Source: an uncultured Bdellovibrionales bacterium (GTDB taxonomy: Bacteria > Patescibacteriota > Minisyncoccia > Moranbacterales > UBA1568). Taken from it: DNA of 45,763 bases. The translations under genes were made by a program, and so were the position numbers. Under the pieces are notes generated by a model. That model was not told the DNA's origin, did not search any database, and saw only the letters and a list, made by a program, of their open reading frames with translations. Below, in pieces: positions 1 through 42,360 of this stretch. The stretch is taken from positions 1-45,763 of the forward strand of contig CAZIBB010000002.1 in the NCBI GenBank assembly GCA_964537075.1. The letters are read 5' to 3'. Within the stretch, counting starts at the first letter, position 1, and every line of letters starts with the position of its first letter.

Positions 1-2093
1 CCCTTCGCAACCGTAATATCCTGCTGCACGAATTCACCAATAGCAGCTACTCTTGTCATCTCCGCGGCGGCCCCAATAGTATCGATGGATGATAGAGCCT
101 CCGCAGCGGGAGCAACAGCGGAGGAAACAGAATTCTCAACGGGCACACCTGATCCGCCATCCGCTGGAGGAGGAATTTCAACATCCGATACGGATGACTC
201 CACATCAACTCCGGCATCAGAAAAATAATGTATCGCGGCTGATGCTCCAAAGACAGCGCCTACTGATAAAGCGAAGGCCCCTACTCGCCGACGATCTCTG
301 CCTTTCACACGACCTTCCAAATCCTGATCAGCATTTTTTATCTTTATAGACAAACGTTCTTGAAGCTCCGTCAATCGCGTTTCTCTATTGGTATCTTTTT
401 CAAGTTCGAATCCCATGAATAAATCCTTTTTTTCTGTATCAACCGATTTTTCAGCACGATACCGAGAAAGCTTTTCCAGTCCCGCTTCAAGAGTCGCGAA
501 TAATCCGCCGGCAGCGGCACCACGTCTCAATCCCACAAGTGATGCTGCCACCGCCCCTCCAGCCGTTCCAAGCAATCCGCCGGCAGCAGCACCAGCAACA
601 CCAAACACGACGACGCCAATAGCCGCTTTTTTCCATAATGGCAACTTATTGTATTTTCGTCCGAGATCAAGAATTTTTTCGGAGAATCCTTTCCGCTCCA
701 TCTGCACATCCGTCCAAGCATCATAGAGCTTCACTTTCGATTCCATGGAAAAATACTGCAGTGTTTCTGCCATGGCCTGTTTCAATTCCTCACCCTCCTT
801 CTTTTGCCGGAGGTCTTCGATTTTCTTATCCAGAATTTCTCGGAGCTTCAATTGATACTGTACTTTCTCATCGAGCGCCTTCTCATCCTTGAAACTTTTC
901 CCGAAAATTCCCGAAAGTCGTTTCCACACCCCGGTTTCTTCATAATCCTTTTTCGCATAGGCCATGCGCAATCCATCCAGTTCGGCTTCCAGCGCCATCA
1001 AACCCTCATTTCCCGCAGGCTGCGCCGTTTTCTCTTTCTGACGAATCATCTCTAAGACTAACTCGCTAAATTTATCTCGTATTCCATGCGTCCTCGTCAC
1101 GGTTGCCTTCCAGTCCGAATTCATAAATTCCTCATACGTGGAAAAACGACCAGCCTTTGCCCGATCAACCTTCATTCGGTTTATCCATTCTTCCGCCTGG
1201 ACATCTCTTCTGAAGGATTCTGAATATACCGTTTCAAAGGATGCTACGGTATCGAACAAATCATCAAATGTCTTCGCGCTTCGGACGGCGGCTTCTCTTC
1301 TCCGCAACTCTTCATCCGATTCTTTTTTCGTTTCACCCTCCGGATGATAGCTTCCATAAGAAGATTTCACCCGGCGTGAGGCAACATTGACAATCTTCAT
1401 TTTTTCACTGAGAACCTTCTTTTCACCCTCATTATCTCCATTTTTATCTGGATGATACTTGCTTTTCAATGATTTCAGTTCTTGCGTGGCCATATGCATG
1501 TCTGAAAAATCAGCATTGCCAAGTCGTGTAAAAAAATGATTCAGAATGCCATCTCCTTCAACAAGCATTATTTGATCATCAGTGAGTTTCAAATTTGTCC
1601 GCAAGAATAACTTCGTCACATCAGGCAGGGATTCAGCTCTCTCTTCCCATTGACGAGACGGGTTATCTTGTGGTTTTTTTACTCCTCCAGCAGGAGCAGC
1701 ATCAGCATCAAAGACATTCGAAACCAGCATGGCATCAGGAGTGATCGGAGGCACAGATGCAGGAATAATAGACGGATCTGAGGTGATGCCGATCGAATCA
1801 TTTGCTTCGTCTTGCCTCCTCAAAATCTGTTCGGCAAATATATCTCCTGATTTGTAGGGATCCCGTTCCTTCTGGCTTGCCCCATCAAAGGCAGACAAAG
1901 ATACATCAGGAATAGCCGTATCAGCAGCAGCTTGAGGTGCCTTCAGATCGCGACTACCTATTTGTCCATCTCCTGATAAAACGGCAGAATCGGCATTGGC
2001 GATACCATACTGCGCTTCAGCTGCTTTCGCGCCAAGATCAGCGTTCTTCCTGAGAAAGTCAGGAAGAATCCTTTCGTCCCCCTTCTTGCTCAT
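1..2093 (-). CDS. J-domain (DnaJ-like, HPD motif) membrane protein; C-terminus lies beyond the window edge
   Basis: Absent from the ORF track because it has no stop inside the window. My hand translation of the minus strand from ATG 2093..2091 stays open to position 1 (more than 690 codons). It contains FFTRLGNADFSDMHMATQELKSLKSKYHPDKNGDNEGEKKVLSEKMKIVNVA (KYHPDK at 1443-1460, HPD at 1446-1454). It also has Gly/Ala-rich hydrophobic segments (AAIGVVVFGVAGAAAGGLLGTAGGAVAASLVGL; VGAFALSVGAVFGASAAI) and coiled-coil-like charged stretches. The ATG overlaps the upstream TGA (ATGA at 2090-2093). Confidence 0.7.
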   Translation of the reverse strand, partial: MSKKGDERILPDFLRKNADLGAKAAEAQYGIANADSAVLSGDGQIGSRDLKAPQAAADTAIPDVSLSAFDGASQKERDPYKSGDIFAEQILRRQDEANDSIGITSDPSIIPASVPPITPDAMLVSNVFDADAAPAGGVKKPQDNPSRQWEERAESLPDVTKLFLRTNLKLTDDQIMLVEGDGILNHFFTRLGNADFSDMHMATQELKSLKSKYHPDKNGDNEGEKKVLSEKMKIVNVASRRVKSSYGSYHPEGETKKESDEELRRREAAVRSAKTFDDLFDTVASFETVYSESFRRDVQAEEWINRMKVDRAKAGRFSTYEEFMNSDWKATVTRTHGIRDKFSELVLEMIRQKEKTAQPAGNEGLMALEAELDGLRMAYAKKDYEETGVWKRLSGIFGKSFKDEKALDEKVQYQLKLREILDKKIEDLRQKKEGEELKQAMAETLQYFSMESKVKLYDAWTDVQMERKGFSEKILDLGRKYNKLPLWKKAAIGVVVFGVAGAAAGGLLGTAGGAVAASLVGLRRGAAAGGLFATLEAGLEKLSRYRAEKSVDTEKKDLFMGFELEKDTNRETRLTELQERLSIKIKNADQDLEGRVKGRDRRRVGAFALSVGAVFGASAAIHYFSDAGVDVESSVSDVEIPPPADGGSGVPVENSVSSAVAPAAEALSSIDTIGAAAEMTRVAAIGEFVQQDITVAK

Positions 2094-4354
2094 ACTTTTT
2101 TATTTAAAAATTTTTCGATAGTATCTCGGATCAAATCTCGCGAAAAAATCTCAGCTTCTCCTTCTGACCATCCAAGGTCACTACCAACATGCGCGAAGGA
2201 TTTTTTCATCGATTCCATCAATGTATCAGCGATGTCTTCTGGATGTTCACCATGATATGCCACCAAGTCTATACTGCTCTTCTTCGCATCCTTTTTCATG
2301 CCATTGAGAGCTTTTGTTATAGCTCCGGACAGGATGGCACTGTCACCACTTTCTTCTGCCTGCAAAAAAAGCTCATCATACGTGCGTTCTGATGATTCCG
2401 TGAGATTCTCCAGAGTTGTTGCCACTGTCTCAACCAAAGGCGTTGTCGGCGTACCTTGCTCAAGTACTTCTTTTTTTATCGGCACAGACTTTTTCTTATT
2501 TCCTCGCGAGAATAATTCAAAATCAAATCTGTCCTGCAAATCTTTTCTGAATCGTTCTGCTTGCGCTGGTCTAATTTTTCTTACCACCCACGCCTCTTCT
2601 GTATCCTCACCTCGATACTTAAATTTGATTTCTTCCGCAGAAACCGATTCGATCACCAATTCCTTTCCATCTTTCTTGAAGGGCATTCGTCGTTTTCCGA
2701 GAACGTCTGCCAATGCAATGAAAACAGCCTCAGGAGATTCTTCTCCTTTTTCTCGTTTCAGCGGTTTTTCTTTTTTAAATGTCTTTTGCTTCTCTTCCCA
2801 AGCAATTCCCAATTCCTTATTCACATCATTGAGAAACACCTGAGCCTCTCTTTGGCTCCCACCATTGATTTTCTCTACAAAATCAGAAAGGGCAGGGGTA
2901 ACAACATCACCAGTCGCCTCGAGAAAGTATCGCTGTTTGCCGATGACGAAACCAATGCTCCGAAGCGCCCTGAGAGAATCCGCGCCTTGTATGGAATCGA
3001 GAAAGACTTGTTTTTCTTTCTCGACAGCCTCCTTGAAAGCAATCAAAACCTCTTGACCCTTTTCAGGTCTTAGTTTTACTGGCATCGATTCACCTGGATT
3101 CTTCATAGGCTGAGATGGCATATTTTCTACGACCGGTGTGACTATCGGATCTTTCTCTAATTGTACTCCATTTTCCGATATTATTGGAGGAATTACGAGA
3201 GGAAAGTCACCGCCTTCTGATATTGCTCTCTTATCTATTACATGTTTCCTTCCCTTTTCTCCCCTTCCTCCCTTTGGTCTTTGAGTATCTGCTATTTTCT
3301 TTCCGCGTCCTGATTTTCGAATATCTTTCTCTTTCTTCAATTCTTGATTCAATTCAGCCTGTCGAACAGCATCCGTATTGACGCCGAACGCATCGTACTC
3401 ATCTATCCCGACTGCAAAAGCAATTTCCGATAGACTCCCTCGAAGAGCCTGCAATAATTCCCGTTTTTGGACAGGATCTTCTGTTTCGAAAAAAGCATTT
3501 TCATTCGATTCGTACCGAGCATCAATTTCACCGCTTACAGACATCGGTTCCTCCGAAATGTTTTTCAAGGCATGATTTAAAATGTCTGTCTCATATCCAT
3601 ATACTGACTGCATCCAGTCAACACTCACTAATTCTGCGGAAATCTCATTGGATAATGTCCACAACTCATGTATCTGCCGTTCTTGCTCATCCAATATGCT
3701 CGTCCGTTTTCCTGCTCGTTTGGCACGGTCATATCCATCGATAATTTCACGACAACGCTGAATATACTGAGCGAGCTCTGCCTTCAAATCAAAAACTGAT
3801 GCCTCCGCCACCGCTCGATCCTCTTCAGTAGCATCCTCCGCGAGAGGAAATTCGATCGATTCCGGGTCGATGCTTTCTAGGGATTTCAAGAATTTTCTCC
3901 CATATATCTCACATGCGCGATCAAGCAATTTCATCTCCCTGTCGTATTCCCCCTCAAAAGATAATACCTCTGAAAAATTTTTCCTCGCACCCTTTTTGTG
4001 TCCTCGTTCAGCATTTTCCTCACTTGAAAAATCAGCATCCTTAGTGCCCTGTGATATATTTGCTCCCGTGGTATTCTCTCGCTTCCTGTATTTCAGCCCC
4101 TTTTTCAAAAGTATCCCCTCCAAAATAGCTCCCGGCATCACATGAGACTGAGTGCCCCCATTCACCCTATACTCCACCATTTGCTTCTCATTCATCCCAT
4201 GTGTCGAAAGAACTCGAAATGATGGCCGTCCTTTCTTGGCGACAACAACTTTGCCTCTTTTTTCATGTATTGCATCCGGAGCATAAAACGCATCGCCTGC
4301 TTGGATTTTCGGCTGTACAAATTCTATTCCTTCACTCATAAAACAATTCATCAA
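2090..4354 (-). CDS. hypothetical, highly charged (K/E/R-rich) 754-aa protein; no family recognised
   Basis: Long uninterrupted ORF in the track. Its stop TGA (2090-2092) overlaps the ATG of the downstream J-domain gene. The start is uncertain: TTG 4354, ATG 4351 or ATG 4339. I recognise no conserved motif. Confidence 0.6.
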   Translation of the reverse strand: MMNCFMSEGIEFVQPKIQAGDAFYAPDAIHEKRGKVVVAKKGRPSFRVLSTHGMNEKQMVEYRVNGGTQSHVMPGAILEGILLKKGLKYRKRENTTGANISQGTKDADFSSEENAERGHKKGARKNFSEVLSFEGEYDREMKLLDRACEIYGRKFLKSLESIDPESIEFPLAEDATEEDRAVAEASVFDLKAELAQYIQRCREIIDGYDRAKRAGKRTSILDEQERQIHELWTLSNEISAELVSVDWMQSVYGYETDILNHALKNISEEPMSVSGEIDARYESNENAFFETEDPVQKRELLQALRGSLSEIAFAVGIDEYDAFGVNTDAVRQAELNQELKKEKDIRKSGRGKKIADTQRPKGGRGEKGRKHVIDKRAISEGGDFPLVIPPIISENGVQLEKDPIVTPVVENMPSQPMKNPGESMPVKLRPEKGQEVLIAFKEAVEKEKQVFLDSIQGADSLRALRSIGFVIGKQRYFLEATGDVVTPALSDFVEKINGGSQREAQVFLNDVNKELGIAWEEKQKTFKKEKPLKREKGEESPEAVFIALADVLGKRRMPFKKDGKELVIESVSAEEIKFKYRGEDTEEAWVVRKIRPAQAERFRKDLQDRFDFELFSRGNKKKSVPIKKEVLEQGTPTTPLVETVATTLENLTESSERTYDELFLQAEESGDSAILSGAITKALNGMKKDAKKSSIDLVAYHGEHPEDIADTLMESMKKSFAHVGSDLGWSEGEAEIFSRDLIRDTIEKFLNKKV

Positions 4355-4430: not shown

Positions 4431-6013
4431 ATGTCTATCAGCACACGCCGCATTTCTCCTATGCTCCTTGGTTTCGGAATGATTCTTCTGCTCGCTTTTT
4501 TTCTCCGCTTCTACAATATAGAGAATCTCCCCGCCGGACTCTATCCAGATGAAGCGATGAACGGCACCAATGCCATCGAAGCGAATGAAACCGGAAATTA
4601 CAAACTCTTCTACGAGGACAATTCCGGCCGTGAAGGACTTTTCATCAATCTCCAGGCGCTCGCCCTGAAAACATTCGGCTACAATATCCCTGCCCTCAAG
4701 CTCTGGTCGGCCATTTTCGGCACCTTGACCGCTCTCGGTATCGGACTCCTCGCCTGGGAACTCTTTGAACGGCGTTCCGCAGCCCTTATCGCAGCCTTTA
4801 TCACGGCCACATCATACTGGGCAATCAATTTCTCCCGCATCGGCTTTCGGGCCATCATGACCTCATTTCTCCTCTCCTTTTCTTTTTATTTTTTCTTCCG
4901 CGGCCTCCGTACCGGAAAGATGTTTCATTTCGCTCTCGCCGGACTCATATTCGGTCTCGGTCTTCATACCTATATCGCTTTTCGTGTCGCGCCATTCATC
5001 CTCGTGTTTCTCCTTCCATTTCTCATACTCGCCTACGAGAATTTTTTCCAGCGCTACTGGAAGCATGCCCTCGTCTTCCTCTTCGCCGCTTTTATCGCCG
5101 CGAGCCCGATGTTTTATGATTTTTATCAGAACCCGCATCATTTTTCAGATCGCTCCGAAGATATTTCCATATTTTCACCCAAGGTGAACCACGGAGATTT
5201 CTTTGGAACCCTCGGAAAGACGCTTGGTCTTTCTCTCATCAAATACAATTTCGTCGGAGATCAAAATTTCCGGCATAACTACGCGCCATACCCCATTCTC
5301 GATCCTATTATCGGCACTTTTTTCCTCGCAGGATTCCTCTTTCTCCTTGGTCAGACAGGCGACTGCTTCTCGCACGCCTCCGCTCTCTTGAATACAATCC
5401 TCATATCGCGCGCAATGCATTTCTCTTCATCATTTTTTTCGTGATGCTCGCACCGGAATTTCTCACCAATGAAGGACTCCCGCATGCTCTCCGATCTATC
5501 GGGACTCAAGTGCCGGTTTTTCTCTTCGCCACCTTTCCGGCGCTTTTTCTGTTCAATCTCGCCCTTCGAAATAAAGGCGGCCGTCATCTGATTTTTTTCT
5601 CCTTCATCATTCTTGCACTCGGTACAAGCGCTCTTTGGAATACGATGAAATACTTTTCCTTTTTCGCGGACAACCCAAAGCAATATTCCTCTTTCGGAGC
5701 CTCACTCAAGAATATGTCTGATCATATCAATACTGCGCCAAGCGAAACGCGCATATATCTCTCTGCCAATACCGGCTACATCGACCTCCAGGCCATACTC
5801 TTTCAAACCTATCAGCAGGCAAAAAATTTCGAAGTCCTGAAACCGGAGACTACTATTATCGCGCCAGCCGAGATCATCATGATCCGCTTCGATGAAAATA
5901 TCTTCCAAAATATCAGGAAGCGCTCACCACAATCCTTCGTCAAGGAAATCCCCTCTGATTCCGGCTATGCGAATTTCAAGGTCGTCGTGATACCAGAAAT
6001 CAAGGAACAGTAA
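4431..6013 (+). pseudogene. GT-C fold (ArnT/PMT-like) polyprenyl-phosphate-sugar dependent glycosyltransferase, split by a frameshift (ORFs 4431..5444 and 5441..6013)
   Basis: The N-terminal ORF is multi-TM with the early-loop motif LYPDEAMNG that is typical of GT-C enzymes. After about 5355 its frame gives a non-membrane tail (QTGDCFSHASALLNTILISRAMHFSSSFFS*). The frame of the second ORF is open from before 5351 and reads SDRRLLLARLRSLEYNPHIARNAFLFIIFFVMLAPEFLTNEGLPHALRS, a natural continuation. Confidence 0.7.
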
Positions 6014-6163: not shown

Positions 6164-8092
6164 ATGCATCACCTCCTCCAATCCCTCAAGCGCCACCCTG
6201 CCATCGCCGTATCGCTCATACTAGTCGTCTTCCTCGCCTTCACCATCATAACCGCCTGGAACGATTCGGCGACTTATGACGAGAGAGCTCACATCCCTGC
6301 TTCCTACAGCTATGTCCGCTATGGTGACATGCGCATCAATTATGAACACCCCCCGCTCTTAAAAGACCTAATCGGTATTTCCCTCCTCACTCTGCAGCCG
6401 ACATTCCCCGGGACGGATCCTCTCTGGACCGAAGGCGTCAACGAACAATGGAACATCGGGACGCTCTTCCTCTACAAGCTTGGAAACGATGCGGATCTTC
6501 TGATCTTTTTCGCGCGACTGCCGATCATCCTTCTCGGGCTCCTTGCCGCCTTCTTCCTCTATCGCATCACCAAGGAAAACGCCGGCACCATCGCTGGAAT
6601 TTTCGCCGTCCTTCTGTTCGCTTTCGATCCGAATATCATCGCCCACGCCCACTATGTCACGACCGACCTCGGCATCGCGATCGCCATCCTGATCGCAACC
6701 TATTTCTTCGTACGATTTCTCAAATATCCTTCCACAAAAAATCTCATCATCGCCGGTATCATCCTCGGCCTCGCCCAAACCGTAAAATTTTCCGCCATCC
6801 TCATTCTCCCGATATTCGGCATTATGTCCGTTCTCTATGGACTCGGAACCGCCATCAAACTCTCTTGGATGGCGCGCATCAAGCTCGCTTTTGCGTATGC
6901 GAGAAAATACATCTACATACTCATGATCTGTTTCATGACCATCTATGCCGTCTATCTCCCGAATGTCTGGAATATGCCGAGCGAACAGATGAACACGCTC
7001 GCCCTTCAAAAGTTTGGCGATGATCGCGAGGCGAAAGTCTTTGCCAGGAATGTCATCGCCGGCATGGAACAAATTCCCCTACTCAAACCATTCACTCACT
7101 ACACGCTCGGCGTCATGGTCGTCTTTACAAGGGTCGCCGGCGGCAATGTCTTCTTCTTCAATAATCCGTTTTTCAATGATACGGAAAGGGAACTCATCTC
7201 CACGGTCGCCTCTCCCTGGTACTTTCCCGCGGTCTTCCTCATGAAGGAAACCATCCCCTTCCTCTTCCTCCTGTTCTTCTCCCTCCTCTACAGCCTCTAC
7301 CGCATCGCGAAACTCCCGCTCTGGAAGGAAGGCGCCTCTCAGTCTCTCGATACCATCATCGAGAGTTTTCACACGAAGACGATCGAATGGACCGTCGGAG
7401 GATTCATCACTCTCTATATCCTCCTCTCGGTCACGGGCAACTTGAATATCGGCCTCCGGCATCTTTTCCCTATCATCCTCTTCCTCTATTTCTTCATCGC
7501 GAAGACGCTCGCCGGTTTCATCAGGCGCCGCCTGCATGATGAGAAACATATCGCGCCGGAGAAGCAACTCAACCGACGTATTTTCTTCATACTCGGATTA
7601 GGATTTTCCCTCTGGATCATCGCGATCCCCTTCATCGCCTATCCGAATTTTCTCTCCTATTTCAACGAAGCGATCGGCTCAGAAAATGGCTACCACTATG
7701 TTACCGATTCCAATTATGACTGGGGTCAGGACATGAAGCGTGTAGAGGCATTCATCAATACTCACAACAGTGAGTGTTCCCGCACGAATACCCTGCCATC
7801 CTGCCGGATCGATACCATTCGCATCGATTATTTCGGTGGAGCGGAACCGGACTACTATCTCGGGAGTGCGTTCAGACCCTGGTATGGCGGACTTCCGCCG
7901 GAAACCGGATGGTACGCGCTGTCATCATTCTTCATCCAAGAAGATAGCTACAAGCAAATCGAACCCGGCACCCGAAGCTACCGTGACTGGCTCTGGAAAT
8001 TCACTCCTGTCACCCGTGCCGGTGAGTCCATCTTCATCTACCATCTCACTGATAATGACATCAGGTCATTATCAGTGAGCAATGAACAATAG
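6164..8092 (+). CDS. GT-C fold glycosyltransferase (PMT_2/ArnT-like), polytopic membrane protein
   Basis: 642 aa with many TM helices and an early-loop YDERAH motif. The architecture is that of phospholipid-carrier-dependent glycosyltransferases, with a soluble C-terminal domain. Confidence 0.8.
   Translation: MHHLLQSLKRHPAIAVSLILVVFLAFTIITAWNDSATYDERAHIPASYSYVRYGDMRINYEHPPLLKDLIGISLLTLQPTFPGTDPLWTEGVNEQWNIGTLFLYKLGNDADLLIFFARLPIILLGLLAAFFLYRITKENAGTIAGIFAVLLFAFDPNIIAHAHYVTTDLGIAIAILIATYFFVRFLKYPSTKNLIIAGIILGLAQTVKFSAILILPIFGIMSVLYGLGTAIKLSWMARIKLAFAYARKYIYILMICFMTIYAVYLPNVWNMPSEQMNTLALQKFGDDREAKVFARNVIAGMEQIPLLKPFTHYTLGVMVVFTRVAGGNVFFFNNPFFNDTERELISTVASPWYFPAVFLMKETIPFLFLLFFSLLYSLYRIAKLPLWKEGASQSLDTIIESFHTKTIEWTVGGFITLYILLSVTGNLNIGLRHLFPIILFLYFFIAKTLAGFIRRRLHDEKHIAPEKQLNRRIFFILGLGFSLWIIAIPFIAYPNFLSYFNEAIGSENGYHYVTDSNYDWGQDMKRVEAFINTHNSECSRTNTLPSCRIDTIRIDYFGGAEPDYYLGSAFRPWYGGLPPETGWYALSSFFIQEDSYKQIEPGTRSYRDWLWKFTPVTRAGESIFIYHLTDNDIRSLSVSNEQ
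8045..8079. repeat. perfect 15-bp inverted repeat (CTCACTGATAATGAC / GTCATTATCAGTGAG), 5-nt loop, inside the 3' end of the GT-C gene
   Basis: 8045-8059 and 8065-8079 are exact reverse complements. The repeat overlaps the codons for HLTDNDIRSLSVS. Confidence 0.85.
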
Positions 8093-8564
8093 ACAGCGAA
8101 CAACGAACATCAAGAAAAACAATTGATACAAAATATAGGCAAAAGACAGATATCTTGAAAGAAAAAATGGACGAACTGGCTTATTCCATTTACAAGGAAA
8201 CCAAAAACTTCCCAAAAGATGAGATGCATGGAATCACTTCACAAATTCGCCGATCAGCACTTTCTATTGTTTTGAATTACATTGAAGGTTACGCGCGAAC
8301 AGGATCAAAAGAGTATAAGAATTTTTTACAGATTTCGTACGGGTCTCTGAAAGAAACAAACTACCTTCTATTTTTCTCAACAAGAGAGGGTTATATTTCA
8401 AAAGAAAGTTACGAAAAATTAACAAAGATTTCTGATGAAATCGGTGCTATGTTTTGGACTACACTTCAGAAAATTAAAACTCGTATCAACGGTTGATTGT
8501 TCCTTATTCACTGCTCCTCGTTCATTGTTCATTGTTCCCTACTCCTTGTTCCCTGTTCACTGTC
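8073..8564 (+). mobile_element. IVS-like cassette 1: GAACA-word arm (8073-8113), 4HB ORF, TGTTC-word arm (8497-8564)
   Basis: Left arm: cagtgagcaatgaacaatagacagcgaacaacgaacatc. Right arm: ttgttccttattcactgctcctcgttcattgttcattgttccctactccttgttccctgttcactgtc. The two are imperfect reverse complements built from the same words. The arms are homologous to those of cassette 2. Confidence 0.4.
8122..8496 (+). CDS. four-helix-bundle protein (23S rRNA intervening-sequence protein / DGR Avd-like family)
   Basis: The sequence MDELAYSIYKETKNFPKDEMHGITSQIRRSALSIVLNYIEGYARTGSKEYKNFLQISYGSLKETNYLL is typical of the family. The track ORF starts at TTG 8155. The frame is open from 8086 and is colinear with the paralog back to 8122, where ATT replaces the paralog's ATG. 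The true start is uncertain: ATT 8122, TTG 8155 or ATG 8167. Confidence 0.8.
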   Translation: MDTKYRQKTDILKEKMDELAYSIYKETKNFPKDEMHGITSQIRRSALSIVLNYIEGYARTGSKEYKNFLQISYGSLKETNYLLFFSTREGYISKESYEKLTKISDEIGAMFWTTLQKIKTRING

Positions 8565-10315: not shown

Positions 10316-10384
10316 GTAACCAGTAATTTGAAACTAGTAACTAGGAGATATCTGAAAGAAATGTGGTTACCAGTTACTGGTTAC
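10316..10384. repeat. spacer hairpin built from GTAACCAGTAA words
   Basis: GTAACCAGTAA at 10316-10326 is the exact reverse complement of TTACTGGTTAC at 10374-10384. Additional partial pairing comes from actagtaactagg and ggttaccagttact. The right arm overlaps the GT4 stop. Confidence 0.7.
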
Positions 10385-11504
10385 CAATAACGCGGTTTAC
10401 CGCATTTCGTATCTTCTCCTGAAACGCTTTCTTTGAAAATCGCATCATATTCAGCTTCATTTCTTCTCGATCGTATTTCCCTTCATTCGTGATAAATCTC
10501 CTCACTCCATCGGAAAGGATTTCCGGAGTCTGGGCAAAAAACAGTTCCCCATTCACACCGGACTCCACCAATTCACGCGAGCCGCCACGCTCAAAAGCGA
10601 TGACTGGTGTGCCGCAGGCAAGCGACTCGGCCATGGCCAGACCGAAATCTTCCTCCGCGACATGTACAAGCGCCCTCGCTTCGCTCAGGAGACAAGACAC
10701 CTCCGCATCATCCTGAAATCCCATAAAACGGATATTCTTCTTTGCCATTCTCTCAAGCGACCGTCTCATCGGTCCGACCCCGACGATCAACAAGGGCAAC
10801 TCTAATTTATTGAAAGCCTCGATGGCGACTGCAACTTTTTTCGCCTCGGTCAATCGCGACACCATGAGAAAATGACCATTCCTATGGTCATCCCGATCCG
10901 CCAACTGGCGGAGAGGGATCTCCGTTGAAATGACCGGCGGATACACCACCTCTGATGGCAACCGGTAATATTTCGCGATCCGCTCCAGCGTATATACCGA
11001 ATTGGCAATCAGCACATCCGGCCGCTCTGCCGCCTGCTTATCCCAAACCCGCAGATACGAAAGCATCATTCGACCGAACAATCGGAATGGAGCGAAGAAT
11101 CCAAGCGTGCGAAGATAGGTCTCATTTTCATCCCATGCATACCGCATCGGCGAATGCACGTAGGCGATATGTTTTGTATAAAGTCGCGTTACCACGCCCT
11201 TCGACCACGCCCCGGAAGAAGAAATGACGAGATCGAAGTCCCGCAGATCAAGAGCCTCAACCGCCGTTGGATACAATGGAAGCAACCACCGGTGGCGTCG
11301 CGTCAAAAAACGGGGAAATCTCGATAAGAATGACTCACGGATCTCGCTTCCCGGAAAATGCCTTCGTACGATATTCTTGTCAGCTAACAAGACGTATACC
11401 GGCGCTTCCGGATACATCGCCATCAAAGACTGCAAAACCCTCTCCGCTCCCCCGAAGGCAAGCAGGAAATCATGGACAATAGCTATTTTTTTTTCATCAC
11501 CCAT
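10374..11504 (-). CDS. glycosyltransferase family 4 (GT-B, group 1)
   Basis: C-terminal EDFGLAMAESLACGTPVIAFERGGSRELVESGVNGELF (E-X7-E type motif); 376 aa. Confidence 0.85.
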   Translation of the reverse strand: MGDEKKIAIVHDFLLAFGGAERVLQSLMAMYPEAPVYVLLADKNIVRRHFPGSEIRESFLSRFPRFLTRRHRWLLPLYPTAVEALDLRDFDLVISSSGAWSKGVVTRLYTKHIAYVHSPMRYAWDENETYLRTLGFFAPFRLFGRMMLSYLRVWDKQAAERPDVLIANSVYTLERIAKYYRLPSEVVYPPVISTEIPLRQLADRDDHRNGHFLMVSRLTEAKKVAVAIEAFNKLELPLLIVGVGPMRRSLERMAKKNIRFMGFQDDAEVSCLLSEARALVHVAEEDFGLAMAESLACGTPVIAFERGGSRELVESGVNGELFFAQTPEILSDGVRRFITNEGKYDREEMKLNMMRFSKKAFQEKIRNAVNRVIGNQ

Positions 11505-11664
11505 AAAACACAGAAATCAAAACACAAAATACCAGACAAAGCACAACTTCCAAAACACAAAACATAAACGACTAAGGTTTTAGGTTTTATGTTTTGAGTT
11601 TTTTGCCTGCCTGCCGGTAGGCAGGGTTCTTGTTCCGCTAGCTGGCGGATTGAGATTTGTGTTT
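11505..11664. repeat. CACAAAA-word hairpin element, copy 1 (fills the whole spacer)
   Basis: The A/C-rich arm aaaacacagaaatcaaaacacaaaataccagacaaagcacaacttccaaaacacaaaacataaac starts immediately after ATG 11504. G/T-rich partners are ggttttaggttttatgttttgag and gagatttgtgttttt. It also contains the GC hairpin cctgcc-ggta-ggcagg and the motif CCGCTAGCTGGCGGAT. Confidence 0.7.
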
Positions 11665-12741
11665 TTACTCTATTAACAATTTCTCTATCTCTTTCGCGCA
11701 TCGAATCCAACTGAAACGACTCACATTGTGGGTCGCTCTTTTTATTATATCACCTCTCCATTCCTCATCAGAAAGCACCTTTTGAATCCCCTCTGCGATA
11801 TCTTCCGGACTCAAGGGATTCACAGTCACGACGCCTTCCCCACCCACCTCAGGAAGCGAGGAGATATCCGACGTAATGACCGGTACTCTGGATGATTGAG
11901 CTTCCAATACCGGTATCCCAAACCCTTCGTACAGGCTCGGAAAGATGAAAACATCCGCACCACGAAGCAATGCCCACTTTTCCTCTTCACTCACATACCC
12001 AAGCTCCACGACTTCATCGCGATATTTGATATTTGATATTTGATATTTGATTCTTCCATAACCATATCCCGGCTTTCCCGCCAATATCAGCTGATGCGGT
12101 ATCCGATGCTGCTCCTTCAGTATCTCAAAGGCTTCGATAATCCGAACGACATTTTTCCGTTCTTCCAACCTCCCAATGAATAAAAGGTATGGTTTTTCTT
12201 GTTTCTTTGTTGGCTGTTCATTGCTCACTGTTGACTGATCCTCATATCCCTCATATACCACTTGTATCTTCGACTCAGGAACACCATAGAGCTTCATTAG
12301 ATCGGACTTCGTATTCTCCGACACCGCAATCAGCGTGCTCGCCGCTCGACATGAGAATCGGATCGAGAGCCTCATATACCATCGCTCCAGAAACGAATAT
12401 GCCTTGGGACAGAATTCATATTCGAGACCATGTATGGTGACGATCGTTTTCTTCGGATGGATGAGCGGTGCCGTATGCGCCGGTATGAACAGGGCATCGA
12501 CTGGAAAAAACAACATTTCCAGGGAAAGTCGCACCTGTGTCCAGAGTCTCGGTGCGCAAAGTTCCTTCACCGTCCAATTATGAGGAAGTTCGAATGGCAC
12601 CTGCTGTCCCGAGCGGACATACAAAAAAACCGGCTCCTGGAGGAGCGTTTCACGGAGATGCCTGATCACCTGATACGAATATTCCTCAATTCCCGTCCGC
12701 TCCGGAAGAAATGCCCGCGATCCATCGATACCGATAATCAT
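11665..12741 (-). CDS. glycosyltransferase family 4 (GT-B, group 1)
   Basis: YEGFGIPVLEAQSSRVPVITSDISSLPEVGGEGVVTVNP. The likely start is MIIGIDGS at 12741 (the track ORF extends to 12762). Confidence 0.85.
   Translation of the reverse strand: MIIGIDGSRAFLPERTGIEEYSYQVIRHLRETLLQEPVFLYVRSGQQVPFELPHNWTVKELCAPRLWTQVRLSLEMLFFPVDALFIPAHTAPLIHPKKTIVTIHGLEYEFCPKAYSFLERWYMRLSIRFSCRAASTLIAVSENTKSDLMKLYGVPESKIQVVYEGYEDQSTVSNEQPTKKQEKPYLLFIGRLEERKNVVRIIEAFEILKEQHRIPHQLILAGKPGYGYGRIKYQISNIKYRDEVVELGYVSEEEKWALLRGADVFIFPSLYEGFGIPVLEAQSSRVPVITSDISSLPEVGGEGVVTVNPLSPEDIAEGIQKVLSDEEWRGDIIKRATHNVSRFSWIRCAKEIEKLLIE
12021..12052 (-). repeat. heptanucleotide tandem repeat (plus-strand GATATTT x4.5; coding strand AAATATC) inside the GT4 coding sequence
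   Basis: The plus strand reads gatattt gatattt gatattt gatattt gatt. It encodes IKYQISNIKY. The unit length is not a multiple of 3. Confidence 0.95.
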
Positions 12742-13213
12742 AGAACAGTGAACAATGACCAATGAACAGGGAACAATAAACCATCAGCCATCAATATGCT
12801 TTTTAATTTTCTGAAGTGTTGTCCAGAGCATGGCTCCAATCTCATCAGAAAGTCTCTCAATTTTTTCATAAGATTCTTATGATAAATATCCTTCCCTCAT
12901 CGAAAAAAACAAGAGATAATTTGTTTCCTTGAGAGATCCATATGAAATTTGCAAAAAATTCTTATACTCCCTTGACCCAGTTCTCGCATACCCTTCAATG
13001 TAATTCAAAATAATCGATAGCCCGGCTCGACGAAGTTGTGATGTAATTCCATATATCTCATCTCTCGGAAAATTCTTCGTTTCTTGGTAAATACAATGAG
13101 CAAGTTCGTCCATCTTTTGTTTCAAAATATCTGTTTTCTGCTTATATCCTTCATCCATTGTTTTTTCCTCATTGTTCCCTGTTCTCTGCTTCTTGCTCCC
13201 TGTTCACTGTTCC
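12742..13213 (-). mobile_element. IVS-like cassette 2: GAACA-word arm (12742-12782), 4HB ORF (reverse), TGTTC-word arm (13170-13213)
   Basis: Left arm: agaacagtgaacaatgaccaatgaacagggaacaataaacc. Right arm: cattgttccctgttctctgcttcttgctccctgttcactgttcc. The arms resemble those of cassette 1: CAGTGArCAATGAmCAAT on the left, and the complement of ACAGTGAACAGGGArCAAG on the right. Confidence 0.4.
12784..13158 (-). pseudogene. four-helix-bundle protein paralog interrupted by an in-frame TAA (codon 94 of 125)
   Basis: The track ORF 12877..13158 ends at TAA (12877-12879), where the paralog has Lys. The same frame continues as ESYEKIERLSDEIGAMLWTTLQKIKKHIDG* to TGA 12784-12786. This is colinear with the C-terminus of the copy at 8122..8496; both are 375 nt. 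Confidence 0.75.
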
Positions 13214-17935: not shown

Positions 17936-18089
17936 AAGCTAAAAAATACAAATTACAAAACACAAAAACCAAACAAAGTACAGAACTCAGATCTCAAAAC
18001 ATAAACTCTCTCTTGGCAGGTTTACACCCTGTGCTTTGAAAGTTGTGCTTTGTTTGGCCTTTGTGTTTTAAAGATTGTGCTTTAAAAAA
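17936..18089. repeat. CACAAAA-word hairpin element, copy 3
   Basis: 17957-17966 aaaacacaaa pairs with 18060-18069 tttgtgtttt. 17969-17978 ccaaacaaag pairs with 18048-18057 ctttgtttgg. Together they form a 22-nt stem with a 2x2 internal loop. The element fills the whole spacer between the gdh stop and the trxB start. Confidence 0.75.
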
Positions 18090-19325: not shown

Positions 19326-19454
19326 ATGATTACTTCAAAACACAAATTAACAAAACACAAAAATCCAGACAAAACACAAAATCCGAAAACACAAACTCAT
19401 CCAGTCCCCATCCTTGTTTGGTTTTTGTGCTTTAGGCTTTGTGCTTTCAAAAGC
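19326..19454. repeat. CACAAAA-word hairpin element, copy 4
   Basis: caaaacacaaattaacaaaacacaaaaatccagacaaaacacaaaatccgaaaacacaaac is followed by cttgtttggtttttgtgctttaggctttgtgctttc. Confidence 0.7.
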
Positions 19455-25737: not shown

Positions 25738-25797
25738 AATAACCAATAATCAATAACCAAAATTCTTCTTTGGTGATTGGTGATTGGGTATTATTTG
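25738..25797. repeat. spacer hairpin built from AACCAATAATC / GATTGGTGATTGG words
   Basis: aaataaccaataatcaataaccaaaa pairs with tttggtgattggtgattgggtattatttg (imperfect reverse complement, short loop). It is followed by CCGCCGGCTGGCGGAT at 25808-25823. Confidence 0.6.
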
Positions 25798-27689: not shown

Positions 27690-27768
27690 TCAGTGATTAG
27701 TATACTCTACCCCTATTATTGTACCACATATTCATAAAAGCATGGAACGTAAAGCATAGAACACCTAG

Positions 27769-27958
27769 GTATCTATCTCAAATCTCACCGCATGAGATGA
27801 AAAGCAAGAATGTCTCCTGCTTGTCGGCTAAAATTTCATCATTTTGGCTGCAAATCCTAAAAATCTCGTCGGAATATCTCGATATTCCTCCTCACTTTTC
27901 AAAATTTTCGCTCAAACTGATGAAATTTTATCTGCGACATGAGATTTGAGATAGATAC
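27769..27958 (+). repeat. structured roughly 190-nt element A (19-bp terminal inverted repeats, nested hairpins); homolog of element B at 41845-42009
   Basis: The terminal repeats GTATCTATCTCAAATCTCA (27769-27787) and TGAGATTTGAGATAGATAC (27940-27958) are exact reverse complements. An inner stem pairs taaaatttcatca with tgatgaaatttta. There is a hairpin ggaatatc-tc-gatattcc. Sequence blocks are shared with element B in the same order and spacing. Confidence 0.7.
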
Positions 27959-28001
27959 TAAATCAAAAACAGCCTCGACTTCCTCGAGACTGCCCTCCTG
28001 T

Positions 28002-28427
28002 TCATTGCTCCTTGTTCTCTGTTCGCTGACCGCGGTCCATATAGGACTGCAGAATGATCCGGGCGGCCTCGGCATCATCGTGCCGACCGACATGCTTCTC
28101 CCCTCGCTCAATCAAGTTCGCCTGAGCCATCTTGGTCGTGAACATTTCATCCTGATAGGCAGTTGTGACGTGATAGGTTCCTTCCAGGCTCCGACCAAGC
28201 TTTTCCCCCTCATACTCCGTTTCTTTGCGACTAATGTGGCTGGGAATCCCGATCACGACCGTGCCTACCTCCTCACGGGCGATGATCTCTCCTAGCTTCG
28301 CGAGCAGCTCCTCCGTATTATCAATGGTATCGTAGGCGAGCGCCACGCCTGTTTCCGCATGTGCCAAAGCAATCCCCACCTTTGATGAACCCCAATCTAC
28401 CCCAAGAAAGTTTTTTCTTACATCCAT
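28002..28427 (-). CDS. ruvX: Holliday junction resolvase-like / pre-16S rRNA nuclease YqgF
   Basis: FLGVDWGSSKVGIALA, and later DDAEAARIILQSYMD; 141 aa. The C-terminal codons run into a TGTTC-word segment (27985-28030). Confidence 0.85.
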   Translation of the reverse strand: MDVRKNFLGVDWGSSKVGIALAHAETGVALAYDTIDNTEELLAKLGEIIAREEVGTVVIGIPSHISRKETEYEGEKLGRSLEGTYHVTTAYQDEMFTTKMAQANLIERGEKHVGRHDDAEAARIILQSYMDRGQRTENKEQ

Positions 28428-38892: not shown

Positions 38893-38953
38893 AATCGTTT
38901 TCTTATTCTCTGATCTGGTATCTAATATCCAGTATCTAATATCTCATCTCTGC

Positions 38954-41798: not shown

Positions 41799-41844
41799 AT
41801 GAGGTCGATACTGATTCGTTTATGCTGCGATACTTGAGAGCCTG

Positions 41845-42009
41845 TCTGAAATCTCATGTCTCGAGAAAATATTCAGATTTCGAGCGAAAACCTTGAGAAG
41901 TGAGGAGACATATCATGATACGCCGACGAGCTTCGAGGGGTTTACAGCCGAAATCTGGATATTTTATGAGACAAGCATAGTTTTTTTATTATACAGCGGT
42001 GAGATTTTA
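41845..42009 (-). repeat. structured roughly 165-nt element B (homolog of element A) occupying the rplW-rplB spacer
   Basis: Five blocks are shared with element A, in the same order on the minus strand: AAATCTCACCGC (42007-41996), CTCGTCGG (41930-41923), CTCCTCACTT (41907-41898), TTTTCGCTC (41890-41882), GACATGAGATTT (41860-41849). Inter-block distances are 77/23/17/30 nt, against 85/23/17/31 nt in A. Confidence 0.7.
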
Positions 42010-42360
42010 AGACTGGCTCCGAAACATTTCGATGGTTTCACCTTTTCTGAGTTTAACGATCGCTTTCTTTACCTTGGCCTGCATACCGATCGTCCGTCCG
42101 AAAGCGCGCTTGCGCGAAGGAACCGTGATCGTATGGACTGCCTCCACATGCACGCCGTAGATTTCCTCGACCGAACGCTTCACCTCACTCTTCGTCGCCG
42201 TCAAACCGATACGGAATGTGTATTCGCCGCGCTCAGAGAGAACAAATGATTTTTCCGTAATGCGGGGAGCGAGCAAAACTTTGTTCGCCAAAGCAATACC
42301 GAAAGAAGTCTTCTCCCTCTTTGCATCCTTTTTCACATCTTTTTTCTCAAATAATGCCAT
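42007..42360 (-). CDS. rplW: 50S ribosomal protein L23 (N-terminally extended)
   Basis: LLAPRITEKS...TFRIGLTATKSEVKRSVEEIYGVHV. Confidence 0.93.
   Translation of the reverse strand: MALFEKKDVKKDAKREKTSFGIALANKVLLAPRITEKSFVLSERGEYTFRIGLTATKSEVKRSVEEIYGVHVEAVHTITVPSRKRAFGRTIGMQAKVKKAIVKLRKGETIEMFRSQS

Follow-up and report, generated by a model that had tools for sequence, protein, structure and literature searches.

The genomes of CPR/Patescibacteria are tiny and compact and are usually thought to be poor in mobile DNA. In Neisseria, the Correia elements (NEMIS), inverted-repeat elements of 100-155 bp, lie between genes and are co-transcribed with them; their hairpin, a substrate of RNase III, affects mRNA stability. 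The duplication made by Correia elements is TA, and they contain an IHF site and inverted repeats of 26 bp that are highly conserved. The palindromic repeats of the reduced Rickettsia genomes can enter coding sequence and become part of a protein, and they are typically translated in frame over their whole length. The IS1031 subgroup of IS5 makes 3-bp TNA duplications. Bacterial MITEs are defined by terminal inverted repeats, target duplications, the absence of a transposase and a long RNA stem-loop (Delihas 2011, PMC3184786). In the Bacillus cereus group, bcr1 comprises dispersed, transcribed repeats of about 155 bp with a non-conserved genomic distribution; short direct repeats flank them and compensatory base changes keep their RNA structure (PMC3184786).

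In the present study, we analysed a window (the whole stretch of 45,763 nucleotides) in which an initial annotation had described a structured element present twice. We consider it likely that these copies, A and B, are members of a previously undescribed, non-autonomous, MITE-like family of mobile repeats in Moranbacteria and other Parcubacteria. L-numbers (L001, L060, etc.) label the loci and contigs that were examined beside the window.

Boundaries and insertion sites of the two window copies

The five sequence blocks previously noticed in A and B are all exact and occur in identical order in the two copies. Their start-to-start distances, 85/23/17/31 nt in A and 77/23/17/30 nt in B, are also as earlier claimed. 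Within the window, the pattern CTCCTCACTT-N7-TTTTCGCTC was found only in A and B with 3 mismatches allowed (0.01 matches expected by chance), and the terminal 12-mers AAATCTCACCGC and GACATGAGATTT are likewise confined to them. The copy number in the window is two, A and B only, and the mean column identity in their pairwise alignment is 79%.

Folding gives, for each copy, a single long, imperfect hairpin that carries a small side hairpin; the z-scores against dinucleotide shuffles are -7 to -9.6. We refer to the better-folding strand of the element as the R strand and to the opposite one as the F strand. The folding energy of the R strand compared with that of the strand read earlier is -81 versus -65 kcal/mol for A and -74 versus -61 kcal/mol for B. 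The initial annotation had A antisense and B sense to the flanking genes. This is correct on the strand it described; the labels swap if the opposite (R) strand, which folds better in both copies, is the functional one.

The closing stem of A, proposed as a perfect 19-bp terminal inverted repeat, is indeed one (27769-27787 with 27940-27958). On the other hand, the extent given earlier for B (41845-42009, starting at the rplW stop codon) is too narrow. Because its outer stem also has about 20 bp (42000-42019 with 41838-41856), copy B starts inside rplW. The parts of the two copies are as follows.

27769 to 27958, minus strand (R strand): copy A, 190 nt, nhmmer score 165.6 against the family profile; its R strand runs in the same direction as ruvX and GT2
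27769 to 27787, no strand assigned: outer-stem arm of copy A (terminal inverted repeat), pairing perfectly with 27940-27958; helix 1
27940 to 27958, no strand assigned: second outer-stem arm of copy A (terminal inverted repeat)
27841 to 27916, minus strand: apical core of copy A, the most conserved part of the family, with invariant columns and common to the type-2 copies; its R-strand sequence is GAGCGAAAA..AAGUGAGGAG-hairpin-CCGACGAG..UUUGCAGCC
27788 to 27827, minus strand: side hairpin of copy A (helix 5), variable in length and sequence
27766 to 27768, no strand assigned: flank TAG (plus-strand letters) of copy A, candidate target-site duplication partner of 27959-27961
27959 to 27961, no strand assigned: flank TAA (plus-strand letters) of copy A, directly after the T-run of the ruvX terminator (minus strand)
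27965 to 27997, minus strand: intrinsic-terminator-like hairpin and T-run of ruvX, with copy A directly downstream
41838 to 42019, plus strand (R strand): copy B, 182 nt, nhmmer score 166.1; antisense to the S10 operon
42000 to 42019, no strand assigned: outer-stem arm of copy B, within the rplW coding sequence
41838 to 41856, no strand assigned: second outer-stem arm of copy B
41878 to 41954, plus strand: apical core of copy B
42007 to 42024, minus strand: new rplW 3' end, TTT CGG AGC CAG TCT TAA (F R S Q S stop); CGG and the codons after it are at the junction or within the element
41820 to 41837, minus strand: stranded ancestral rplW 3' end TCAAGTATCGCAGCATAA, matching TCAAGT..TCGCAGCATAA of the L060 empty site

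The ruvX-GT2 gap measures 312 nt in the window and 98, 151, and 142 nt in the relatives L056, L057, and L059, respectively, and the gene order Peptidase_M24-RuvX-GT2 is kept in L056 and L057. The relatives have the same layout as the window, that is, a terminator hairpin with its T-run (an equivalent hairpin is present in L056, L057, and L059), then a TGGTACAAT box, then the GT2 start. Copy A sits exactly between the T-run of the ruvX terminator and this box. The TGGTACAAT box itself (about 27715-27723, minus strand), ahead of the GT2 start, resembles an extended -10 element and is conserved in L056, L057 (as TGTTACAAT), and L059.

Similarly, the rplW-rplB gap is 209 nt in the window and 20 nt (L050, L060) or 9 nt (L054) in relatives. 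All the relatives with an empty rplW-rplB site (L050, L052-L055, L060, and L061) have gaps of 9 or 20 nt and an L23 that is 83-92% identical. Both window sites are empty in close relatives, and the element was gained at both.

At rplW, the insertion also changed a protein. The L23 C terminus reads ..EMFRSQS in the window and ..EMFK(S)GVAA or similar in the 82-92% identical relatives, and copy B supplies the last five rplW codons and the stop. The sequence is ATGTTCAAGTCAGGTGTCGCAGCATAACGAATCAG in L060, the closest empty site, and ATGTT-TCG-[element]-TCAAGTA-TCGCAGCATAAACGAATCAG in the window; TCAAGT, the right junction, is uninterrupted in the empty site. The ancestral rplW 3' end therefore persists, non-coding, just downstream of B. 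In other words, copy B landed in the last rplW codons, gave the gene a new stop and stranded the old 3' end downstream.

The 209-nt gap and the same rplW-element junction are also present in L001, an independently assembled ENA contig (element at 10338-10527). Furthermore, the Logan contigs L002 and L003, which carry the exact L23 of the window, end about 60 nt into copy B. Because L001 shares the junction and two Logan contigs break inside the element, the copy B insertion is real, without assembly artefact. The element fragments the short-read assemblies of the window organism, as repeats do, and the practical consequence is that such assemblies break exactly at the copies (L002, L003).

A similar case may exist in 'bacterium WH4.bin1'. 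The phosphoglucomutase beside its L012 copy (5364-5555) ends in ..IIRGE, with the TAA stop abutting the element, and an 88% identical phosphoglucomutase without the element ends in ..IIAGETGTA (L012 versus L064 and L062). Judging from these protein ends, the element may have reshaped this gene too.

The window has other repeats of its own. Short tandem arrays with a 7-nt period and differing heptamers (GTTCATT, GATATTT, GAACAAT, CAAAACA, TTTGTGC, and TATCTAA among them) occur in its intergenic regions and gene 3' ends, at 8492-8563, 10316-10344, 11575-11595, 12021-12051, 12743-12781, 13169-13212, 17943-17967, 19336-19395, 19424-19447, 25738-25787, 28000-28030, and 38919-38944. The arrays after ruvX in the relatives have other heptamers, GAACAAT in L056 and AGATAAT in L057, L058, and L059. 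A 423-nt inverted repeat, 76% complementary, has its arms at 8115-8537 and 12743-13165, 4.2 kb apart. It flanks the genes for an FtsQ-like protein, DNA polymerase III delta' and two GT4 glycosyltransferases and partly overlaps the heptamer arrays. Separately, a 754-aa ORF at 2090-4354 (minus strand) has no Pfam match at E <= 1e-5.

A dispersed family across CPR genomes

Homologues of the window's RuvX and L23 are labelled Moranbacteria in their source records, which assigns the window to this group. About 25 further copies were found in MAGs of Moraniibacteriota, Nomurabacteria, and Parcubacteria and in metagenomes. Exact-pattern scans covered species-representative genomes and metagenome contigs. 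They yielded three copies in 'bacterium WH4.bin1' (on stretches of an 826-kb contig), three in Moraniibacteriota MFD10474 (on three contigs) and four in Moraniibacteriota STA_10 (on four contigs), besides copies in the Nomurabacteria MAG CG1_02_43_90, Parcubacteria GW2011_GWD2_38_11, and several metagenome contigs; the rest of the matches were plainly chance. These counts of three to four copies in each of three MAGs come from 8-kb stretches alone. A profile search with 17 copies added second copies in L024 and L044, and a scan with the terminal-repeat motif added one in L058, the ruvX contig of a relative. Collections of viral, plasmid, and phage sequences gave zero copies.

Two of these loci have features of their own. 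Three short GC-rich palindromic inserts, GTGCCCCTCCCAAGGCGGGCAGGG, CCTGCCTGCCGGTAGGCAGG, and GCCACGTCGCTCGCGAGCGACAGTGAC, split the L044 copy (6391-6633) and suggest that the organism has another, smaller type of mobile palindrome. The L058 copy (3204-3394) lies about 400 nt from a gene (3789-3941) with a weak match to bAvd, the accessory protein of diversity-generating retroelements; this proximity is probably a coincidence.

The copies are 177-190 nt long and lie 6-90 nt from the neighbouring ORFs or overlap their stop codons. Several occur per genome, in both orientations, between unrelated housekeeping genes (iPGM, S41 peptidase, GT2, ValRS, PGM); the window copies neighbour glycolysis, cell-wall, and ribosomal genes. 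With neighbours that run in one direction, the R strand agrees in about half of the cases, i.e., there is no orientation preference. The occurrence in both orientations argues against an RNA function that depends on the host transcript and for a mobile DNA element. What had been viewed as a two-copy, implicitly RNA element is instead a dispersed multi-copy CPR repeat, inserted at both window sites relative to the relatives. Nor is it part of a longer IS or intron, as the annotation had allowed for: housekeeping genes flank it, and the inverted repeats are its outer limits. An integron attC site was rejected as well, with the copies being isolated, in both orientations and between housekeeping genes.

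One could also imagine that such hairpins evolved in place, as immobile cis-regulatory signals for processing, stability, or attenuation inside operons. They are very stable, they lie at gene ends and inside an operon, and their positions are near stop codons, all of which speaks for that view. Against it, the same sequence of about 190 nt stands at unrelated loci across different phylum-level lineages and in both orientations, relatives with an 83-92% identical L23 are empty at rplW-rplB, and downstream of B the ancestral rplW end remains recognizable. We therefore regard an origin in place as scarcely credible.

No conserved ORF was found among the copies, since every frame is stopped at different places between copies without a shared start codon. 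Specifically, a small protein was rejected, with the open frame broken at differing places in 10 of the 17 copies and no common start. The opposite idea, that stops are built into all frames, was also rejected; the worst-frame stop distance is like that of shuffles (50 versus 68 nt on the R strand, 95 versus 84 nt on the F strand).

The identity among the STA_10 copies is 86-95%. Over the element, A and B are only 65% identical, and the nearest copies lie in other genomes (84% for A with L048, 79% for B with L004 and with L012). Since each is closer to copies of other genomes than to the other, at least two old subfamilies coexist in the window genome, with A and B in different ones. A further architecture, 'type 2' (L026, L028, L030, L035/L041, and L045), has nothing in common with the main type beyond the apical ~75 nt and, at the inverted-repeat tip, AGAG(G/T)CTG.

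The annotation had not recognized the family, and the whole window is indeed without an Rfam match at the gathering score. With E up to 10, the two copies gave only chance-level Rfam matches, namely CRISPR-DR19 at 18.8 bits (cut-off 40) and two snoRNA families. A hammerhead motif was discarded, as the CTGATGA string of copy A is not conserved among the other copies. Literature searches on MITEs and repeats in Parcubacteria, Patescibacteria, and Moranbacteria found nothing relevant.

The flanks just outside the terminal G...C pair are mostly TTA or TAA. Identical TTA or TAA stands on both sides in 5 of the 17 copies, barely above the roughly 3 expected if each side independently prefers TTA/TAA (a rough hand estimate from the flank frequencies), and at least two of the three positions match in 12 of the 17. 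The left TAA of L012 and of L008 doubles as the stop codon of the gene before it. At copy B, read against the L060 empty site, the right flank is TCA, and the left junction is TCG with one extra T where TCA is expected. At the other empty sites, divergence precludes the reading of a duplication; for L012 versus L064/L062, it lies between the stop codon and the terminator that they share. The TTA/TAA flanks as such are a MITE-like trait; the near-chance count of identical flanks and the left junction of B weigh against a MITE reading.

A 10-nt match between the arm of A and the L059 empty site, together with target similarity at B, had raised the idea that the outer stem derives from target DNA. 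We dismissed it, since other genomes have these arm variants at sites with no relation to those in the window (that of A in L048, that of B in L012 and L004).

No transposase was found among the neighbouring proteins or the window proteins scanned, and no solitary or gene-flanking copies of the terminal repeats occur in the approximately 60 loci examined or in the window. The lack of an autonomous partner or transposase in the DNA examined is a further point against the MITE reading. Nevertheless, the copies are short and have no ORF, carry terminal inverted repeats, and are dispersed with presence/absence differences between relatives, which are the marks of a MITE. The element is mobile, non-autonomous, and bounded by inverted repeats.

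Fold, strand asymmetry and proposed mode of propagation

We examined covariation in an alignment of 17 copies (A2), with the structure from RNAalifold. The fold has 65 pairs, of which 29 have compensatory double changes. The paired cells amount to 95.7% observed versus 84.3% in column shuffles, and none of 500 shuffles reached the observed values; with partners slid by 1 to 3 columns, at most 50% are paired. Thus, the conserved secondary structure looked for in the initial annotation exists and covaries. The covariation covers the outer stem (helix 1, 96.4% paired), the long middle stem and the apical hairpin. The apical hairpin had been said to change its sequence and keep its pairing, and so it does; for instance, pair 87-101 of A2 is GC in 9 copies, AU in 6, CG in 1, and GU in 1.

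Conservation peaks in the apical core (about 75 nt), above the termini. Here, GAGCGAAAA stands opposite UUUGCAGCC, and AAGUGAGGAG stands opposite CYGACGAGCU around the variable hairpin. Read as a helix, AAGUGAGGAG/CYGACGAGCU could form two tandem G.A/A.G steps.

The two strands are not equivalent. The R strand gives the better fold in 21 of 22 copies, divergent type-2 copies included. Part of this energy difference is base composition, because the shuffle mean energies differ too (-40.5 versus -33.5 kcal/mol). Wobble cells are G-U in 74 cases and A-C in 14, and all six pair positions with frequent wobbles are G-U on the R strand, a small sample with roughly p = 0.03. A plain cut-and-paste MITE of double-stranded DNA predicts none of the following: covariation over the whole stem, conservation of the core over the termini, or one-sided wobbles. 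All three are thus points against the MITE reading in its simple form, and together they leave a small chance for a strand-specific RNA or ssDNA mechanism.

Such a mechanism would be a strand-specific mobile element that moves via ssDNA (HUH/IS200-IS605-type) or via RNA copied back to DNA, with the R-strand hairpin as the substrate. The 74:14 wobble bias with its six one-sided positions, the better R-strand fold, the covariation over the whole hairpin and the apical core that is more conserved than the termini are all in its favour. The irrelevance of neighbour orientation is also expected if selection acts on the element's own propagation. However, the pairing of the ends over about 20 bp and the TTA/TAA flanks are the architecture of an inverted-repeat transposon, whereas IS200/IS605 elements have separate subterminal hairpins without inverted repeats. 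The surroundings of the copies showed no gene for an HUH protein, TnpB, or a reverse transcriptase. Moreover, the asymmetry derives from few independent events (the six positions), and the energy difference is partly compositional. Overall, we consider this mechanism unlikely, and likewise it is doubtful that the invariant apical core (GAGCGAAAA..AAGUGAGGAG / CYGACGAGCU..UUUGCAGCC) is recognized on ssDNA or RNA by a CPR protein. A palindrome derived from IS200/IS605 was rejected, with the two ends of the element pairing together as inverted repeats; strand asymmetry is its sole IS200/IS605-like trait.

The strong covariation and the invariant purine-rich internal loops, possibly with tandem G.A/A.G stacking, would also suit independent ncRNA genes of about 190 nt on the R strand, duplicated around the genome, with apical internal loops that bind a protein. 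Being without match to known RNA families, they would be new. A search for a shared internal promoter or terminator found no promoter-like or terminator-like site common to A and B; the outward-facing -35/-10 match of copy A is a hybrid and hinges on the repeat variant of that copy. Furthermore, the outer stem extends to the outermost inserted base on either side, and a promoter borne by the element could therefore not yield the full hairpin. About half of the copies, among them the one in the S10 operon, have their R strand antisense to the genes around them. Copies overlap the stop codons of neighbours, and orthologous sites are empty in close relatives. These observations make ncRNA genes a decidedly improbable explanation.

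Returning to the MITE-like reading, we propose that a transposase moves the element in trans by recognizing the inverted-repeat tips (5'-GAGCCTGT-like). Insertion would take place at T-N-A (mostly TTA/TAA, often a stop codon) with a candidate 3-bp duplication, in an IS5/PIF-Harbinger-like (Tourist-like) manner. In such compact genomes, almost every copy would be transcribed by read-through, and the transcribed element would fold back entire into one long hairpin without a trailing T-run. Since no T-run follows the hairpin, transcription of rplB and the genes downstream would continue, and a folded-back copy would leave the neighbouring ribosome-binding and start sites undisturbed. As nearly all sites are transcribed in this proposal, the surviving copies would be those that fold back on themselves. 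The transcribed hairpin is probably cut or bound as dsRNA, in the manner of an RNase III substrate, because it would contain perfect duplexes of roughly 20 bp. The apical core probably binds a protein, either the transposase or a host factor. Tolerance of read-through and a conserved apical protein-binding core would then be what selection has preserved.

A MITE-like family that differs between near relatives is a marker of recent genome dynamics in uncultured CPR lineages, and one of its copies sits in the S10 ribosomal operon and rewrites the C terminus of L23. Covariation, conserved core and one-sided wobbles make the family a test case for selection as an RNA or ssDNA structure versus service as a transposase substrate only. 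A strand-specific hairpin, if true, would be a new way to mobilize or exploit small structured nucleic acids in ultra-small genomes.

Comparison with known systems

The present element is like bacterial MITEs in its length below 200 bp, terminal inverted repeats, lack of a transposase, dispersed intergenic copies, predicted long RNA stem-loop and altering of gene ends (PMC3184786). It differs from them in having no known cognate IS, a duplication that is a candidate only and a core more conserved than the inverted repeats. Its hosts, Moranbacteria and other Parcubacteria, are genome-reduced CPR bacteria, for which the literature searched describes no MITE.

Tourist-like MITEs and the IS5 and PIF-Harbinger elements are similar in the candidate 3-bp T-W-A (T-N-A) flanks. 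The tips of the inverted repeats, G-(A/G)-GCC-(T/A)-GT / GAGCC(T/A)GT, presumably resemble the GGCC(A/T)GT-like tips of Tourist/mPing. In contrast to those systems, no IS5-family transposase was found beside the present element, and the duplication is a candidate one.

As in the Rickettsia palindromic elements, an insertion has become part of a protein, copy B supplying the last five residues of L23. Unlike those elements, copy B brings a stop after five codons and has no conserved frame, and the sequences are unrelated.

The family is new, and its behaviour is closest to that of bcr1 and the Correia elements. It shares with bcr1 the dispersed, non-conserved distribution and the compensatory changes that keep the structure. 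The two are unrelated in sequence and host; bcr1 is transcribed, whereas transcription of the present element is a prediction, and the direct repeats of bcr1 have 5 bp, whereas the candidate duplication here has 3 bp. With the Correia elements there is no known sequence similarity, and RNase III processing, which is established for their hairpin, is only inferred for the hairpin described here.
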